This document shows positions 14,164-54,181 of a stretch of 64,000 nt of DNA, piece by piece. The position numbers and the translations under genes are program-made. Positions within the stretch are counted from its first letter, which is position 1; each line of letters opens with the position of its first letter. Source of the stretch: Escherichia coli (lineage in GTDB: Bacteria > Pseudomonadota > Gammaproteobacteria > Enterobacterales > Enterobacteriaceae); the NCBI RefSeq assembly GCF_030013595.1, contig NZ_CP122768.1; one strand, written 5' to 3'. Under the pieces are notes generated by a model. It ran no database searches, was not told where the DNA came from, and saw only the letters and a program-made list of their open reading frames with translations.

Positions 14164-14421
14164 ATGCGTACAACCCAACAATTCAGCATTACATTAACTA
14201 ACGAAATGGCTGACATGGTGCGCGCCCGTGTGGCTTCCGGTGCCTATGCTTCAGAAAGCGAGGTCATTCGTGAAGGGCTTCGCGCACTGAATGAGCGCGA
14301 TAAAGCAATCGAAGCGTGGTTAACGCATTCAGCCGCCCCCTCTCTTGATTCTATCCGCGAAACCCCAAACAACGGACGCTCCATTTCACAGGTTCGCGCC
14401 GCGATTCGATCCGGGAAGTAA
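14164..14421 (+). CDS. parD: ParD-family antitoxin (ribbon-helix-helix)
   Basis: 85 aa; MRTTQQFSITLTNEMADMVRARVASGAYASESEVIREGLRAL typical ParD; immediately upstream of a ParE-like gene. Confidence 0.8.
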   Translation: MRTTQQFSITLTNEMADMVRARVASGAYASESEVIREGLRALNERDKAIEAWLTHSAAPSLDSIRETPNNGRSISQVRAAIRSGK

Positions 14422-14426
14422 TCTGC

Positions 14427-14726
14427 ATGACATATGAAGTCATCATTACTCCTGAGGCCGAACAACAAATAATCAACCTGCACAGGTATATAACGGAGAA
14501 AGCAGGGAACGTCATTGCTGACAATTATGCCAATGCGCTTCTTGATTATCTTGATGGGTTTTCTACATTCCCGCATCGGGGCAATAAACGCGATGATATT
14601 CGCCAGGGGATGCGGGTAACTCATTTCCGCCACAGAACGATTATTGCTTTTGCCGTTGATAGCAGAAAAGTCTTTATTGTCGGTATCTATCATGGTGGGC
14701 AAAGTTATGAAACCGATTTCTTATAA
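14427..14726 (+). CDS. parE: ParE/RelE-family toxin
   Basis: 99 aa; starts 6 nt after parD stop; a hairpin terminator follows. Confidence 0.75.
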   Translation: MTYEVIITPEAEQQIINLHRYITEKAGNVIADNYANALLDYLDGFSTFPHRGNKRDDIRQGMRVTHFRHRTIIAFAVDSRKVFIVGIYHGGQSYETDFL

Positions 14727-19310: not shown

Positions 19311-19736
19311 TCAATGTACTGCCACAGCATTTCCTGCCGGGCCACCACGGTTCATCTGATTGAAACCGGCGATTGCCACTGCGACAAAATCATCAGCGTC
19401 TCTCACCAGTCGCTCCCGCGTCTCCACCAGCTCCCGAAAATAAGCTGAACTGTGGCTGCGCATTCTGGCCACCAGCAAAGGTGGCATTGCCTTTTCGATC
19501 GCTGGTAACAACGTCTGAATTTTTTCAACTGCATCAGGGGTGTCTTTCTCTACCCAGCGGAAAATTTTCTGGGTATTGCGAGCCAGGGCTTCCGGATGGC
19601 TATCGTCATACAGTTCAGGAAACGTCATACCCAACTCAAAATAAGCCTGGGTTATTCCAGCTGCTGGAACTTTTTCGCCATCAGGACGCGCCCAGGCATT
19701 CATCGCCATGCGGATGTGTTCATGCTTGATTTTCAT
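19311..19736 (-). CDS. YdaT-like protein (CII-position gene downstream of cro)
   Basis: 141 aa ORF in the position and size of Rac ydaT. Confidence 0.4.
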   Translation of the reverse strand: MKIKHEHIRMAMNAWARPDGEKVPAAGITQAYFELGMTFPELYDDSHPEALARNTQKIFRWVEKDTPDAVEKIQTLLPAIEKAMPPLLVARMRSHSSAYFRELVETRERLVRDADDFVAVAIAGFNQMNRGGPAGNAVAVH

Positions 19737-19758
19737 GAATCATTTGCCTCTTGATGTT

Positions 19759-20055
19759 TCAGGTATGATCAAATGAGGATTTGTTACTGTCATTTAGTTG
19801 CTTCACTGACATATTCTGCGAACAACATGCCGAACGTCGTAAATATGACCAGTCAATATCAGGACGAAGTTCTTCGCACAGAACCTCACCTCTTGTTGCA
19901 CGTTCAATTGCTGGACATCTCTCGGCAGGCAATTGACGTACCCCTTTGATCCATTGATTTACGCTTGGAGGTGATACACCTAAAAGCCTAGCCATTGCTG
20001 ATTGCCCACCGACAACAGCACAAGCTTGCTTGAATGAATAGTTCTCTTTTTTCAT
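19759..20055 (-). CDS. Cro-like HTH regulator (YdaS-like)
   Basis: 98 aa; divergent from repressor gene across an operator-rich gap; GGAG RBS. Confidence 0.6.
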   Translation of the reverse strand: MKKENYSFKQACAVVGGQSAMARLLGVSPPSVNQWIKGVRQLPAERCPAIERATRGEVLCEELRPDIDWSYLRRSACCSQNMSVKQLNDSNKSSFDHT

Positions 20056-20084
20056 CGAATGAACTCCAAAAACACACAGAAATA

Positions 20085-20150
20085 TTAGGCGACGCCTAAC
20101 ACAAATGTCAATAGGCTGTGCCTAATGCGATAAAGGTAGGAATTGCCTAA
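20085..20150. promoter_or_regulatory. OR-like operator cluster with divergent promoters
   Basis: Three sites matching TTAGGC-N3-GCCTAA (20085-20099 perfect palindrome; 20111-20125; 20137-20150); minus-strand TTGACA/TAATAT promoter candidate overlaps them. Confidence 0.55.
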
Positions 20151-20178
20151 TACAATGAGCATAGGAGAATATTAAGCA

Positions 20179-20655
20179 ATGCTTAGTGGTAAAGACTTAG
20201 GCCGAGCGATAGAGCAGGCCATTAACAAAAAAATCGCATCGGGATCCGTCAAATCAAAGGCGGAGGTCGCACGCCACTTCAAAGTCCAACCACCATCAAT
20301 TTATGACTGGATTAAGAAAGGCTCTATAAGTAAAGATAAACTTCCAGAATTATGGCGTTTCTTTTCTGATGTTGTTGGTCCAGAGCATTGGGGGCTTAAC
20401 GAATACCCCATACCAACCCCCACCAATTCAGATACAAAAAGTGAACTTTTAGATATAAACAACCTTTATCAAGCAGCCTCTGATGAAATAAGAGCGATTG
20501 TAGCTTTCCTGTTATCTGGAAATGCTACAGAACCAGATTGGGTTGACCACGATGTTCGCGCCTACATAGCAGCGATGGAAATGAAAGTGGGTAAGTATCT
20601 GAAAGCTCTAGAATCTGAACGGAAAAGCCAGAACATCACAAAAACTGGAACTTAA
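20179..20655 (+). CDS. Prophage repressor (CI-like, no peptidase domain; RacR-like size)
   Basis: 158 aa with N-terminal HTH-like region; flanked on both sides by the same operator motif. Confidence 0.55.
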   Translation: MLSGKDLGRAIEQAINKKIASGSVKSKAEVARHFKVQPPSIYDWIKKGSISKDKLPELWRFFSDVVGPEHWGLNEYPIPTPTNSDTKSELLDINNLYQAASDEIRAIVAFLLSGNATEPDWVDHDVRAYIAAMEMKVGKYLKALESERKSQNITKTGT

Positions 20656-20750
20656 ACTTATATGGTCTGACGGAAAACTCCTGGATTCCGTTATTTAACC
20701 CCCCATCACTTTCTGCTGTCGCCATCACCTATTAGGTTACGATCAAAACA

Positions 20751-20793
20751 TTAGGCATAGCCTATTGACAATCAATTAGGCATTACCTATAGT
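20751..20793 (+). promoter_or_regulatory. OL/PL-like: two operator sites overlapping a near-consensus sigma70 promoter
   Basis: TTAGGCATAGCCTAT and TTAGGCATTACCTAT; TTGACA (20765-20770), 17 nt spacer, TATAGT (20788-20793). Confidence 0.6.
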
Positions 20794-20892
20794 TCCAGCA
20801 TACCACCCACCCCGCCCCACAGAACGCAGGGCAATACTTCGAGTTACCAGGCAGTGGTCAGGGGTTAAGTAGCCAGCCCGAGGCGTAAGAAC

Positions 20893-21126
20893 ATGACGGC
20901 AGGGTTCAACTTTAACTATGCAGCAGGTTTTTGTTCCGCCACCCCGGCGTTAAGGGGAAATGAGGTCAGCATGGATACTATCGATCTTGGCAACAGCGAA
21001 TCTCTGGTATGTGGCGTGTTCCCCAACCAGGACGGCACGTTCACTGCGATGACGTATACCAAAAGCAAAACGTTTAAAACCGAATCTGGCGCGCGTCGCT
21101 GGCTGGAAAGAAACTCAGGTGAGTGA
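20893..21126 (+). CDS. Hypothetical early-left protein (start uncertain)
   Basis: ORF; alternative ATG at 20971. Confidence 0.3.
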   Translation: MTAGFNFNYAAGFCSATPALRGNEVSMDTIDLGNSESLVCGVFPNQDGTFTAMTYTKSKTFKTESGARRWLERNSGE

Positions 21127-21127
21127 T

Positions 21128-21259
21128 ATGGATTTCGACACAATCATGGAAAAGGCTTACGAAGAATACTTCGAAGGCCTTGCCGAAGGCGAAGAAGCTC
21201 TCAGCTTCAGTGAGTTTAAACAGGCGCTTTCCAGCTCGGCAAAATCTAACGGCTGATAA
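21128..21259 (+). CDS. Small acidic hypothetical protein, 43 aa
   Basis: ATG with AGGTGAG RBS; below ORF-track cutoff. Confidence 0.3.
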
Positions 21260-21285
21260 GCGAAGCAGCACCGCGAGGAATCAGT

Positions 21286-21504
21286 ATGCAGAAACGAGAA
21301 CCCGTCATCATCGCGCCAGACTATACCGATGATGAACTTTATGAGTGGATGCGCCAGAAAATTAATGCAGCGCAGGATCTGAAATGGGCCAATGAAGCCA
21401 GGGCTAAGCAGGCTGAAAATCTGTCCGCTCTGGAGCAGGATATCACCAGGCTGGAAAAAGCAGCGGCATTAAGCATTGCCAGAATGATTTCATACCCGCG
21501 TTAA
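21286..21504 (+). CDS. Hypothetical early-left protein
   Basis: 72 aa ORF with GAGGA RBS. Confidence 0.4.
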   Translation: MQKREPVIIAPDYTDDELYEWMRQKINAAQDLKWANEARAKQAENLSALEQDITRLEKAAALSIARMISYPR

Positions 21505-21639
21505 TAGCTAACCAACGAAGCTAAGGTTGGTAATTAAGGAGTTCTCCACGGGTCAGGTGGAGTGCGTGCGCCGGACACGGGTGAGCATCCGGTACGTTCT
21601 TTAAAAATCTGGATAGTCCCAACTTATTTAAACGGTTAA

Positions 21640-22071
21640 TTATCTTGAGTTCATCCAGAACTTATTATTGCAAGCGAGGCAAAAAGTACGAAAATGAGCA
21701 TCAAAGCGCATTATTTCCATTGGCTGAAGTACAGATATTACCTTTTTTCCAAAACATTGTGGGCAAAGATACACAGTTATCTCAGTATCGCCTATAAATT
21801 GCTTCTTGGAATATACAAGGGTTCCAGAATCAAGCTTGTTAAGCTTGTAACCTTCCGCCTGTCGCTGAAAATCTTCTGTCTCTGCAATTTTTGCTTTGAG
21901 ATGCATTATCTCTTCATCACGAAAGCGGATCGCATCGCAAAGAGAGAAGCATTCCGCCTGAAGCGTGATTAGTTTGTTCTGAAGTTCAATAGTTGCGGCT
22001 TTAACTTCTGCATCCGTTTTTGCGTCATTAATAACCTTAGCGAGACCAGCTGTCTCCTTTATCGCAGCCAT
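21640..22071 (-). CDS. Coiled-coil protein with C-terminal zinc-ribbon, encoded antisense to the early-left operon
   Basis: Probable start MAAIKETAG; CPQCFGK...CLACNNKF motifs; AT-rich segment. Confidence 0.4.
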   Translation of the reverse strand: MAAIKETAGLAKVINDAKTDAEVKAATIELQNKLITLQAECFSLCDAIRFRDEEIMHLKAKIAETEDFQRQAEGYKLNKLDSGTLVYSKKQFIGDTEITVYLCPQCFGKKVISVLQPMEIMRFDAHFRTFCLACNNKFWMNSR

Positions 22072-22411
22072 AGCCGCTGACAGTTCTGCTATCACGTTGA
22101 GTACTCTTCTCGTTGTTGGGGATATCCGGATTATACAAATTTCTTGTTGTTGGGGAATAACAGGAACCACCTCGCCTGACGTGGTTAAAAGCAGGCACAC
22201 AACGCGAAAGCGTACGGCGAGGTAGCTGGTTCATAGATAGCCTGTCGTTAAATTTTCGTCGACCGTGCACTTCCGGTTGTGGCAATCCGCGAAATGGCGC
22301 GGCGGTAAGTATGGCTGGGTTATCCTTACCCCATTAGTGGCACCGGGTTGTCAGGTTGACCATACGCTTAAGTGACAACCCCGCTGCAACAACCCATGTT
22401 GATTACCTTTT

Positions 22412-22622
22412 GGCGGGTATCCGTTTTTTGTTTTCCCTTGTGATACCCGCCCTTTTTAAAGTGAATTTTGTGATGCGGTGAATGCGGCTCAGCGCACGCG
22501 GAACAGTTAAAAAGGCCAGTTGACTTCCGTATTGGTTCTTATGGGTGGGTTCTCTGTATCCGGCGTTAATTATTAACTGGTTAACGTCACCTGGAGGCAC
22601 CAGGCACCGCATCACAAAATTC
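22412..22622 (+). promoter_or_regulatory. Nested inverted repeats in a 570-bp non-coding gap
   Basis: 10-bp perfect IR GGCGGGTATC/GATACCCGCC (22412-22421, 22442-22451) followed by T-run; 18-bp perfect IR GAATTTTGTGATGCGGTG (22463-22480) and its reverse complement (22605-22622). Confidence 0.4.
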
Positions 22623-22640
22623 ATTGTTGAGGATGCGATA

Positions 22641-22823
22641 ATGGAAACGTTATTACCAAACGTCAATACGTCTGAAGGTTGTTTTGAAATTGGTGTCAGA
22701 ATCAGTAACCCTGTATTTACTGAAGATGCCATTAATAAGAGAAAACACGAACGGGAGCTATTAAATCAAATATGCATTGTTTCAATGCTGGCCCGTTTAC
22801 GCCTGATGCAAAAAGGACGATGA
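22641..22823 (+). CDS. Small hypothetical protein
   Basis: METLLP start with GAGGA RBS. Confidence 0.3.
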   Translation: METLLPNVNTSEGCFEIGVRISNPVFTEDAINKRKHERELLNQICIVSMLARLRLMQKGR

Positions 22824-32190: not shown

Positions 32191-34243
32191 ACGGTTTTCT
32201 CGCCACCGGCACATCCAGATTTTTCAGTATTTCCACAAAGGGAGAGGGATTCTCTTTGTTAAACAGTGCCCATACCCGATGGCGTGCCCGGGTCAGCGCC
32301 ACGTACATTAACCGCCGTTCTTCAGCGTCCGGGAAATCCTCAACCGGTGGCAGTAGCGCCTCTTCCATAATCGACTCCCGCGCCGCAGCCGGAAAACCAT
32401 CACTCCCCTCCTGCAAGCCAACGATGATGACGTAATCCGCCTGTTGCCCTTTGCTGGCATGAATGGTCATAAAGTCGATTTGCAACTTCGGCCAGCGTGT
32501 TGCCGCTTTTTCCAGGCTGGCAGGCCTCATGTGATGGTAACGCGCCAGGATCAGAATGCGCTCTTCCGGTTTGGCATAACCAGAGAGCTTATCCAGCAAA
32601 GCGTCAAGATGGCTCTCATCCAATAACGTGACGGCTTTTTTGTCTCCATTGGTTAAGCTGTTTAGCGGCTTTTTCAGCTGGCCTGGGTTCTGCTGAATAA
32701 ACCGGTTTGCCACCTCACCGATACGACTGTTAAAACGGTAAGTCGTGTCTAAATCGCAGCGATCACCTTCACCAAAGTTTTCATGGAAAGCGGTGGTGAG
32801 CGACATTTGCGCACCGCTGAAGCGATAAATCGCCTGCCAGTCATCACCAACGGCGAACAACGTCGTCTGACTGTTTTGCTTGCGTAATGCCGCTAACAAC
32901 GCTGCGCGCTGCGGCGAGATATCCTGAAATTCATCAACCAGAATATGCTTCCACGGGCTGATAAAGCGACCTTTCTCCAGAATCACAATCGCCTGGTGAA
33001 TAAGGCCCGAAAAATCGACAGCGTTTTCTGCCTTCAGCGCACCTTTCCAGGCTTTTAATAACGGGGCCATCAACTTGATACGTTTACTGAACAGATCGCG
33101 AATCTCTTCGGGTGCACTGGCAATCATTTCTGCCTGTGCACCACCGTGCATCCGCATCAGACTTACCCAACGATCGAGGCGTGAGGCAAGACGACGCTGT
33201 AATTTTTCATCATCCCAGAAGTTACCTTCTGGCACTGACCACTGCATTTCTTCCGTCAGCCATTGCCGCCAGCCCTTCGCCTGCGCTTTCTTTTCGCTGC
33301 ATTGCTTGCGCCACTCAGCAATAAAGAGTTCATGACGGGCAGCGGTATCATTTTCCAGTTTGCTGACTATCGGAACTTTTTTGCTGCCCTGCTGAATAAT
33401 ATGCAGCGCCAGCGCATGAAACGTGCGTGCGGTAATGTCTTCGGTATGTAGCCGTTCGCGAATACGCTCGTCCATCTCTTCAGCGGCTTTGCGACCAAAC
33501 GCCAGCAATAAAATTTGCTCAGGGGACGCTTCACCACGCGCCAGCAACCAGCCTGCACGGGCCACCAGCACCGACGTTTTTCCGCTTCCTGCACCAGCCA
33601 GCACTAACAAAGAATGCTCGCCATTAACGACTGCCCGGGCCTGCGCCGGATTCAGCGGTGAAGACTCGACCTGGCGGAAAAAATCCGCATACTCGGTAAG
33701 CATGGCTTCGGTATACGCCTGATTATGCTGCAACCGAGCGCTTTCAATATCTTTCAACCAGGCCTGACATTTACGCCACGCCTCACGGCAGTTATCGAAT
33801 TCTTCCAGTCGGTTAACCGGCAACGGCAACGCCGACAAAGCCTGGCGGATTTGTTGCTGCACGCCAGAGGTTTGCTCACGCGTCAGCCATTTATTTTCTC
33901 CAGTACGCGTGGCAATCAAATCCAGTTGCTGGCGTAAAACACCAGACGCAATTTCGCTCATCTCGCCACTCCACCGCCGCCAGTGAGCATCAAGATGATG
34001 GTAAAAACGCTGCGTCTCGCCCCATTCGGTGCCGTGCAGACGCACCACTTTTTCGTCCGGCAGTACAAACTCCAGCTCGCCCCATACCAGACCGCGCTTA
34101 CAGTGAATCGCCAGTAATTGATTGAAAGGAATAAGGTATTCGTGGCGATCGCCGGAGACTTTAATCCCGGCATTGAGGATCACCGCCCGATCGTAAGGGT
34201 GCTGTGCCAGACGTTTTCCAAGCGTTGTCGCTTTCAGTTCCAT
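32189..34243 (-). CDS. helD: DNA helicase IV
   Basis: 684 aa from MELKATTLGKRLAQHPYDR; Walker A GAGSGKT. Confidence 0.95.
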   Translation of the reverse strand: MELKATTLGKRLAQHPYDRAVILNAGIKVSGDRHEYLIPFNQLLAIHCKRGLVWGELEFVLPDEKVVRLHGTEWGETQRFYHHLDAHWRRWSGEMSEIASGVLRQQLDLIATRTGENKWLTREQTSGVQQQIRQALSALPLPVNRLEEFDNCREAWRKCQAWLKDIESARLQHNQAYTEAMLTEYADFFRQVESSPLNPAQARAVVNGEHSLLVLAGAGSGKTSVLVARAGWLLARGEASPEQILLLAFGRKAAEEMDERIRERLHTEDITARTFHALALHIIQQGSKKVPIVSKLENDTAARHELFIAEWRKQCSEKKAQAKGWRQWLTEEMQWSVPEGNFWDDEKLQRRLASRLDRWVSLMRMHGGAQAEMIASAPEEIRDLFSKRIKLMAPLLKAWKGALKAENAVDFSGLIHQAIVILEKGRFISPWKHILVDEFQDISPQRAALLAALRKQNSQTTLFAVGDDWQAIYRFSGAQMSLTTAFHENFGEGDRCDLDTTYRFNSRIGEVANRFIQQNPGQLKKPLNSLTNGDKKAVTLLDESHLDALLDKLSGYAKPEERILILARYHHMRPASLEKAATRWPKLQIDFMTIHASKGQQADYVIIVGLQEGSDGFPAAARESIMEEALLPPVEDFPDAEERRLMYVALTRARHRVWALFNKENPSPFVEILKNLDVPVARKP

Positions 34244-52934: not shown

Positions 52935-53945
52935 TTAGATATGGGTAACGATTTCTTTAATCAGCGGCGGACCTTTAAAAATAAAACCAGAATAAATTTG
53001 CACCAGTGAGGCCCCCGCAGCAATCTTTTCACGCGCAGCGATAACCGAGTCAATGCCGCCAACACCGATGATCGGTAAGCGACCGTTTAATTCCTGTGAC
53101 AAGCGGCGAATAATTTCTGTGCTTTTTAACTGAAGCGGACGACCACTTAAGCCACCGGTTTGATCACAATTTTTCATTCCCTGAACCAGAGAACGATCGA
53201 GCGTGGTATTGGTTGCAATAACGCCATCAATATTATGGCGAACTAAACTATCGGCAACCTGGATCAATTCTTCTTCAGAAAGATCCGGCGCGATCTTCAC
53301 TGCGATCGGCACATATTTATGGTGCATCGCTTGCAAATCATTTTGCTTATTTTTAATCGCGGTTAAGAGATCATCCAGCGCTTCGCCATATTGCAGTGTG
53401 CGTAGTCCTGGGGTATTCGGCGATGAAATATTGATGGCGATATATCCCGCATAAGCATAGATTTTTTCCATACAAATCAGATAGTCATCTTTACCCTGCT
53501 CCACCGGCGTATCTTTATTTTTGCCGATGTTAATACCCAGGACGCCATCATAATGGGCTTTTTTTACGTTCTCTACGAGGTTATCAACGCCAAGATTATT
53601 AAAGCCCATACGGTTGATCAAACCTTCGGCATCTACCAGACGAAAGAGACGCGGCTTGTCATTACCTGGCTGTGGACGTGGCGTGACGGTACCGATCTCG
53701 ATCGATCCAAATCCCATCGCGCCTAACGCGTCAATGCACTCCCCGTCTTTATCAAGACCGGCTGCCAGACCAAGCGGATTTTTAAACGTCAGGCCCATGC
53801 AGTTAACAGGTTTCGCAGGCACTTTCTGCCGCACCAGTGCTTCAAACGGCGTTCCTGTAATACGGCGTAATTGCTGAAAAGTAAACTCATGAGCACGCTC
53901 TGGATCGAGCTGGAAAAGGGCTTTACGAACGAAGGGGTAGTACAT
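52935..53945 (-). CDS. pyrD: Dihydroorotate dehydrogenase (quinone)
   Basis: 336 aa from [21 protein letters not shown]. Confidence 0.95.
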
Positions 53946-54181
53946 GAACTCTCCTGGATTCCCGGTGTGCAAACCGGGGGCGTATTATGTGCGAGTTCGG
54001 ACCAAAAGGGAATTGACCTGTGGCAATAAATAGCAAACGTTTTCTTATTGCGCTTTTTTTATGCTTTTTTTGGCTTTTCTTCCTCAGATAAATCATTTCG
54101 ACTCGCGGACGCCCTCTGTCAGACTGACCGAATTGTTATCAATGTTAACAAAACAAGAACAATTGGTTATAAGGAGAGAGT

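Follow-up and report, generated by a model that had tools for sequence, protein, structure and literature searches.

The window, by which we mean the whole 64-kb stretch of DNA that was analysed, very probably holds the immunity cassette of a Rac-type lambdoid prophage beside yccA, in which the known right operator would be accompanied by a left operator and promoter (OL/PL) that silences the early-left operon. The three repressor sites between the divergent repressor and cro-like genes, plus a fourth one (O4), are the published RacR operators, and the on/off switch is the known, already studied Rac immunity system. The observation made in the initial annotation is confirmed. The putative OL/PL module, for which sequence comparisons give good support, appears to be an unreported, modest addition to Rac.

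Genes and prophage context

The features of the region are collected in Table 1. The repressor is identical to K-12 RacR (b1356) at 158 of 158 residues and YdaS to its K-12 counterpart (b1357) at 98 of 98, whereas the product of the ydaT-family gene is only 33% identical to K-12 YdaT and represents a different allele. Despite this low identity, the YdaT-box matches exactly the site footprinted in K-12 (PMC11879457), and the left mosaic breakpoint lies at about 19700-19713, just inside ydaT. In the Pfam search, a weak HTH was the sole match of RacR and Peptidase_S24 was absent; this domain is detectable when present, since it was found in a relative with the same operators (L124, see below). 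No solved structure matched RacR at E<=1.

Table 1. Features of the immunity region and adjoining early-left genes (positions are those of the window).
Feature	Position	Strand	Sequence or basis	Remarks
ydaT-family gene	19311-19736	-	Pfam YdaT_toxin, E=6e-10	cII-like regulator
YdaT-box	19726-19743	-	ATGATTCATGAAAATCAA	Overlaps ydaT start codon
ydaS	19759-20055	-	Pfam YdaS_toxin, E=3e-31; P22_Cro	Cro-like regulator, 98 aa
PydaS	20111-20082	-	-35 TTGACA 20111-20106, 18-nt spacer, -10 TAATAT 20087-20082	PR analogue; 10/12 consensus
O1	20085-20099		TTAGGCGACGCCTAA, 0 mismatches	Palindromic at 14/14 pairable positions; overlaps PydaS -10
O2	20111-20125		ATAGGCTGTGCCTAA, 1 mismatch	Abuts PydaS -35, 1-nt overlap
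O3	20136-20150		GTAGGAATTGCCTAA, 2 mismatches	Overlaps likely -35 of leaderless racR promoter
PracR3	20165-20170	+	-10 GAGAAT; sequence of the promoter mapped and mutated in K-12	Leaderless racR promoter
O4	20172-20186		TTAAGCAATGCTTAG, 3 mismatches; relaxed search	Spans racR ATG at 20179
racR	20179-20655	+	NCBIfam RacR equivalog NF049929, 244.6 bits (cut-off 200)	Repressor, 158 aa
Lone half-site	20197-20202	+	TTAGGC; relaxed search	Inside racR; also noted in PMC9638921
OL3-like site	20732-20746		TTAGGTTACGATCAA, 4 mismatches	Degenerate, weak; may not function here
OL2	20751-20765		TTAGGCATAGCCTAT, 1 mismatch	Last base is first T of -35
PL-like promoter	20765-20793	+	TTGACA-17-TATAGT; promoter scan	11/12 consensus
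OL1	20776-20790		TTAGGCATTACCTAT, 2 mismatches	Overlaps spacer and first 3 nt of -10
PL leader	20798-20970	+	~94% identical to K-12 up to ~20958	Conserved
DUF1391, ydfB, ydfC	20971-21504	+	RefSeq annotation; Pfam DUF1391	First early-left genes, presumed PL targets

The 1.2-kb region is 99.7-100% identical to many E. coli chromosome segments in which RefSeq annotates racR, ydaS and a ydaT-family gene. According to the RefSeq annotation of a 99.9% identical genome, it belongs to a lambdoid prophage in which packaging, lysis, Q, rusA and replication genes are followed by ydaT-ydaS on the minus strand, while the plus strand carries racR and DUF1391-ydfB-ydfC...dicB-exonuclease-xis-integrase, ending beside the host gene yccA. 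Host chromosome (the yccA...ompA...pyrD side) extends from about 27295 onward and includes the sole Rfam match in the window, a PyrD leader at 53940-54013 (minus strand). A ParD/ParE toxin-antitoxin pair was observed among the nin-region genes (about 14164-14726). The left arm at 21128-22823 is Qin-like (ydfB, ydfC, dicB), and one genome that is 100% identical over the 1.2 kb carries a different left arm.

Operator sites around racR

A search of the 64-kb window for the 15-bp pattern TTAGGC-N3-GCCTAA with up to two mismatches recovered, at their positions, all five sites that had been described on both sides of the repressor gene: three between the divergent genes, one of them (O1) a perfect palindrome, and two (OL2 and OL1) on the near-consensus promoter downstream of racR. 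The total of five did not stand, however, and is put at six or seven: O4, between the genes, had been overlooked, and a relaxed search also brought up the OL3-like site and the lone half-site. The search gave one further match, at 33771 within host helD, which is at chance level. By chance, about 2.1 sites with up to two mismatches are expected per 64 kb, and five were observed within 706 bp. When 2000 first-order Markov simulations of a 64-kb sequence were scored for their largest cluster within 750 bp, the maximum was 0, 1, 2 and 3 sites in 246, 1650, 102 and 2 simulations, respectively, and never more than three. Two palindromes flagged as terminator-like by a scan (20752-20764 and 20082-20102) were rejected, being the operators themselves. 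Among the weaker sites, OL1 has two non-consensus bases, an A at position 10 and a T at position 15, so that its affinity may be low, and the OL3-like site has 2-3 mismatches in relatives, 3 in K-12 and two or fewer in 16 of the 79 E. coli-type loci analysed.

The right-operator part is the re-discovery of a characterised element, because the proteins are identical to those of K-12 and the racR-ydaS intergenic region nearly so (97% identity, with nine differences, of which one affects the left half-site of O3 and the other eight fall between operators). The operator sequence, presented as distinct in the initial annotation, was in fact already published in 2017 and 2022. Krishnamurthi et al. 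2017 (PMC5700373) reported three GCCTAA/TTAGGC repeats in the 123-bp K-12 intergenic region, on which RacR formed three EMSA complexes and was enriched in vivo by ChIP-qPCR, as well as the RacR-dependent repression of a ydaS-gfp fusion. Wisniewska et al. 2022 (PMC9638921) mapped the ydaS promoter, the same TTGACA-18-TAATAT, in K-12 by primer extension and mutagenesis, described three racR promoters, one leaderless (PracR3 was mapped and its -10 mutated), and obtained a RacR DNase I footprint with the consensus (T/A)TAGGC-n3-GCCTA(T/A). In that report, O1 is the operator at which protection from DNase I sets in first, when little RacR is present, the spacer of one operator (O4 here) overlaps the racR start codon, and YdaS is described as not repressing racR. 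YdaS has also been reported to compete for the RacR operators. A 2023 follow-up (PMC11014345) described four inverted repeats, a RacR octamer by size-exclusion chromatography and a C-terminal domain unlike that of CI; the RacR regulon is called by its investigators not yet characterised in detail. The promoters of the window sit at the published positions relative to O1, O2, O3 and O4. Because RacR and YdaS are 100% identical to those of K-12, the K-12 EMSA, footprint, start-site and reporter data apply directly here, and RacR binding and ydaS repression, published for K-12, are to be expected at these sites from an identical protein on near-identical DNA.

The pair of sites downstream of racR

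The downstream pair and the PL module are identical in K-12. When each is read on its own strand, the PR(-) module (...cATTAGGCAcAGCCTATTGACAtttgtgTTAGGCgtcGCCTAATAT) and the PL(+) module (...cATTAGGCAtAGCCTATTGACAatcaaTTAGGCattACCTATAGT) are near-copies that have ATTAGGCA.AGCCTATTGACA in common and the same site-to-hexamer register, the last base of one operator lying in the -35 and the other operator overlapping the first three bases of the -10. Between racR and OL, the search for a terminator gave merely a weak 6-bp hairpin, with a fold no better than that of shuffled sequences (z = -0.46). The literature that we searched, as far as its available text goes and with sbcA-era genetics, EcoCyc and RegulonDB outside its scope, does not mention any RacR sites beyond the end of the repressor gene. 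For the leftward genes, expression data are documented: upon racR silencing, ydaG, ydaF, kilR, ydaE, racC, ralA and ydaC were reported to rise 40-70-fold by RNA-seq (PMC6765115), and xisR and intR about 100-fold by qRT-PCR (PMC11014345). In the view of one group (PMC4150792), kil is silenced by 'trac', a Rho-dependent terminator located inside racR. Read-through from the racR promoters could account for part of the leftward derepression, which counts against the OL/PL reading.

The motif search in phage and prophage sequences that the initial annotation had suggested found the pair kept both in E. coli-type loci and in diverged genera. Three OR sites and the OL pair stand at fixed offsets in all 79 E. 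coli-type IMG/VR loci analysed, with O2 present in each. O4 is conserved in all relatives, at -7, and O3 is kept as ATAGGAATTGCCTAA in the Klebsiella-type ones. The spacing between OL1 and OL2 is always 25 bp in relatives, and every relative has the OL2/-35 fusion GCCTATTGAC, 0.34-3.1 kb from the repressor start; the GCCTATTGA fusion followed by a second site at the 25-bp spacing was found in all diverged relatives with sufficient downstream sequence (+342 to +3117 from the repressor start). Klebsiella phage KpF5 illustrates this arrangement: its RacR is 56% identical overall, the N-terminal domain being far better conserved, its OR sites include a perfect one, and its repressor gene is followed by an HSDR_N-domain cargo gene, an intrinsic terminator and then, 1.4 kb downstream, the OL pair, 25 bp apart and fused to TTGACA-17-TAATAT. 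A degenerate form of the OR and OL layout also occurs in a Pseudomonas phage that has YdaS/YdaT neighbours and an N-terminal domain about 52% identical. Within the E. coli type, variable columns numbered 4/48 in the OR half-sites versus 34/64 elsewhere, and 3/24 versus 43/68 for PL. The Fisher p-values for these contrasts are indicative only, as the compared sequences are mutually related, and the PL flank columns may hold small indels.

We also searched for the PL module alone in 100,044 species, with one genome each. Of seven matches, six (in Erwinia, Mixta, Proteus, Burkholderia and two E. coli-like contigs in MAG bins) had a RacR-type gene and OR-type sites upstream on the same strand, and the seventh, in a Nitrosomonas MAG (L127), had no RacR-like gene in the 1.8 kb available upstream. 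Contigs binned as Candidatus Nanosynbacter (L128) and Lachnospiraceae (L129) MAGs carry E. coli-type Rac immunity regions with RacR 100% and 92% identical, respectively, which probably represent binning contamination.

Relatives differ in what is joined to the DNA-binding domain. Three other architectures share the TTAGGC operators and the OR and OL layout: the RacR-type domain was found fused to Peptidase_S24 in a 236-aa protein (L124:1209-1919), alone in a 77-aa one (L125:5001-5234) and as part of a 283-aa 'CI' in a Pseudomonas phage (L133:3001-3852). The comparison shows the DNA-binding domain and its operators travelling as a unit, while the C-terminal domain, and hence the route of induction and oligomerisation, is swapped between relatives. 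In Klebsiella-type relatives an HSDR_N/DUF450 gene of 384-390 aa stands between the repressor gene and OL (KpF5, L006:29374-30528; L118:3890-5062; L115:5640-7313); in L115 that slot also contains an rve-family transposase, and its HSDR_N ORF has only 281 aa. Lambda carries rexAB at this place, and the HSDR_N/DUF450 gene is a candidate lysogen-expressed defence gene.

The homology breakpoints place OL/PL and the 160-nt leader inside a mobile immunity cassette extending from about 19700 to 20958, the latter being the point at which homology ends in 62 of 82 loci. No structured RNA of the nut or put kind was recognised in the leader by Rfam, and its fold was weaker than that of shuffled sequences (z = +1.3). 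The 5' part is C-rich and G-poor (17 C and 6 G in 33 nt), and this start, together with folding no better than shuffles, makes the leader resemble a Rho loading site; there may be a connection with Rac kil, whose silencing is known to depend on Rho. An ATG at 20893 opens a frame into the DUF1391 gene (77 aa versus the annotated 51 aa); this extension is probably not coding, since small indels leave the K-12 ATG with an 18-codon frame only.

Other explanations of the downstream pair have to be weighed against the one preferred here. In lambda, OL helps OR through a loop, and the pair could similarly be mainly a looping anchor, or a target of YdaS (Cro), that boosts OR repression or tunes racR autoregulation, and not a device for the repression of a left promoter. 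Consistent with this, the RacR octamer amounts to four dimers (PMC11014345), YdaS has been described as a competitor of RacR at the operators, and the OL-OR distance varies from 0.3 to 3.1 kb, as a loop could tolerate. We consider it unlikely as the main role, as all relatives have the pair joined to a -35 and a -10 in the PR register, which is predicted by promoter occlusion and needless for a pure anchor; moreover, the anchor and promoter-repression roles are compatible with each other.

The likeness of the PR and PL modules could also mean that the latter is a non-functional PR-O1-O2 duplicate left by recombination between immunity regions. This is very improbable: in Escherichia, Klebsiella, Erwinia, Mixta, Proteus and Burkholderia alike, half-sites, 25-bp spacing and hexamers are intact amid flanks, spacers and intervening genes that are entirely different, and variable columns avoid the half-sites. 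Even less credible are chance matches to a short palindrome, for although the expected frequency given above would provide for about two sites, and the one at 33771 is of that level, clusters of more than three within 750 bp occurred in 0/2000 simulations, and the sites are conserved and their binding is published. The identification of the downstream pair as OL/PL is, on these comparative grounds, strongly supported.

Discussion

At the right operator, the literature shows for identical proteins and nearly the same intergenic DNA that RacR dimers bind 15-bp inverted repeats of the type (T/A)TAGGC-N3-GCCTA(T/A). By covering the -10 and flanking the -35 of the strong ydaS promoter, O1 and O2 keep the rightward lytic operon (ydaS-ydaT-replication) off, and O3 and O4, which at the leaderless racR promoter cover -35 and +1/ATG, provide autoregulation. 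The putative left operator is the pair located 77-135 bp past the racR stop codon, with OL2 and OL1 placed on TTGACA-17-TATAGT as O2 and O1 are on PydaS; RacR bound there is predicted to occlude RNA polymerase, and the early-left operon DUF1391-ydfB-ydfC...dicB-exonuclease-xis-int would in this way be silenced. Both promoters should then become active once RacR drops, in agreement with the increases reported upon racR silencing for the leftward genes (40-70-fold) and for xisR and intR (about 100-fold). Since RacR has no S24 domain, induction cannot proceed by RecA-stimulated self-cleavage.

The OL-OR centre-to-centre distances here are 640-691 bp, and it may be speculated that an octamer of four dimers bridges OL1-OL2 to O1-O2 in a loop of about 0.65 kb. 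The only match of our literature search for RacR and looping, within the text available, was the paper on CP-933P. We tentatively entertain a bolder, although doubtful, reading: that the pair is a true OL, that the octamer acts as two tetramers bridging OL1-OL2 and O1-O2 (about 0.65 kb), and that PL/OL, and not read-through past a Rho terminator in racR, is the main gate of kilR/recET-type early-left genes. Such bridging contrasts with the alignment of the four octamer dimers on the four intergenic sites and, if true, lambda-style long-range cooperativity would be achieved with an unrelated C-terminal domain.

The main value of these results is a correct annotation of the immunity as of the Rac type, from which immunity of its lysogens to other RacR phages, and cross-regulation with them, is to be expected. 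The lethal cross-talk published for the C.Csp231I regulator likewise applies to this prophage. For Rac itself, OL/PL would offer a direct and testable account of the derepression of the whole left arm (ydaG...kilR, recET, xis/int) when RacR drops, and the module would complete the RacR regulon.

The comparison with lambda supports the initial interpretation of a lambda-like OR/OL immunity switch, in that operators overlap both promoters and the second pair is on a promoter facing the early-left genes. The likeness includes the divergent repressor and cro genes, the dyad operators over PR and over a leaderless maintenance promoter, the octamer-forming repressor and, as read from the sequence, what would be a second operator set on an early-left promoter co-oriented with the repressor gene. 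There are differences, however. Operators are 15 bp long (TTAGGC-N3-GCCTAA) versus 17 bp in lambda, with four sites in OR and two to three in OL; unlike in lambda, rexAB is missing and a mere 77 bp separate the repressor gene from OL; nothing like the N/nut system was recognised in an Rfam search of the region; and the reported failure of YdaS to repress racR departs from the layout of lambda Cro. The C-terminal domain of RacR is unrelated to that of CI and lacks the S24 self-cleavage domain, so that the resemblance to lambda concerns the architecture of the switch and does not extend to its mode of induction.

CP-933P of O157:H7 (PaaR2/YdaS/YdaT) is reported to have the same gene order, an octameric repressor and a leaderless repressor mRNA, and also a PL933P promoter with OL1-OL3 mirroring PR (PMC8630535); it differs in the repressor family (PaaR2), in its 18-bp palindromes of the GTTTAGTAA type and in the toxin-antitoxin pair that follows the repressor. 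The DicA/DicC system of Qin has another repressor and other operators, and DicF RNA was not detected in the window (Rfam, gathering score); nevertheless, it too has a divergent repressor/cro-like pair over a leftward ydfABC-dicB operon, and the left arm here is of that type. From K-12 Rac, a cryptic prophage integrated at ttcA and with ydaG-ydaF-sieB-kilR-recET in its left arm, the prophage described here differs in its position beside yccA, its Qin-like left arm (ydfB, ydfC, dicB), its YdaT (33% identity), its replication genes (a DnaT-domain protein and a lambda-P type one) and the Q, lysis and packaging genes that it still carries. Both nevertheless have the same RacR, YdaS, four operators, PydaS and PracR3 hexamers, downstream pair and leader of about 160 nt.
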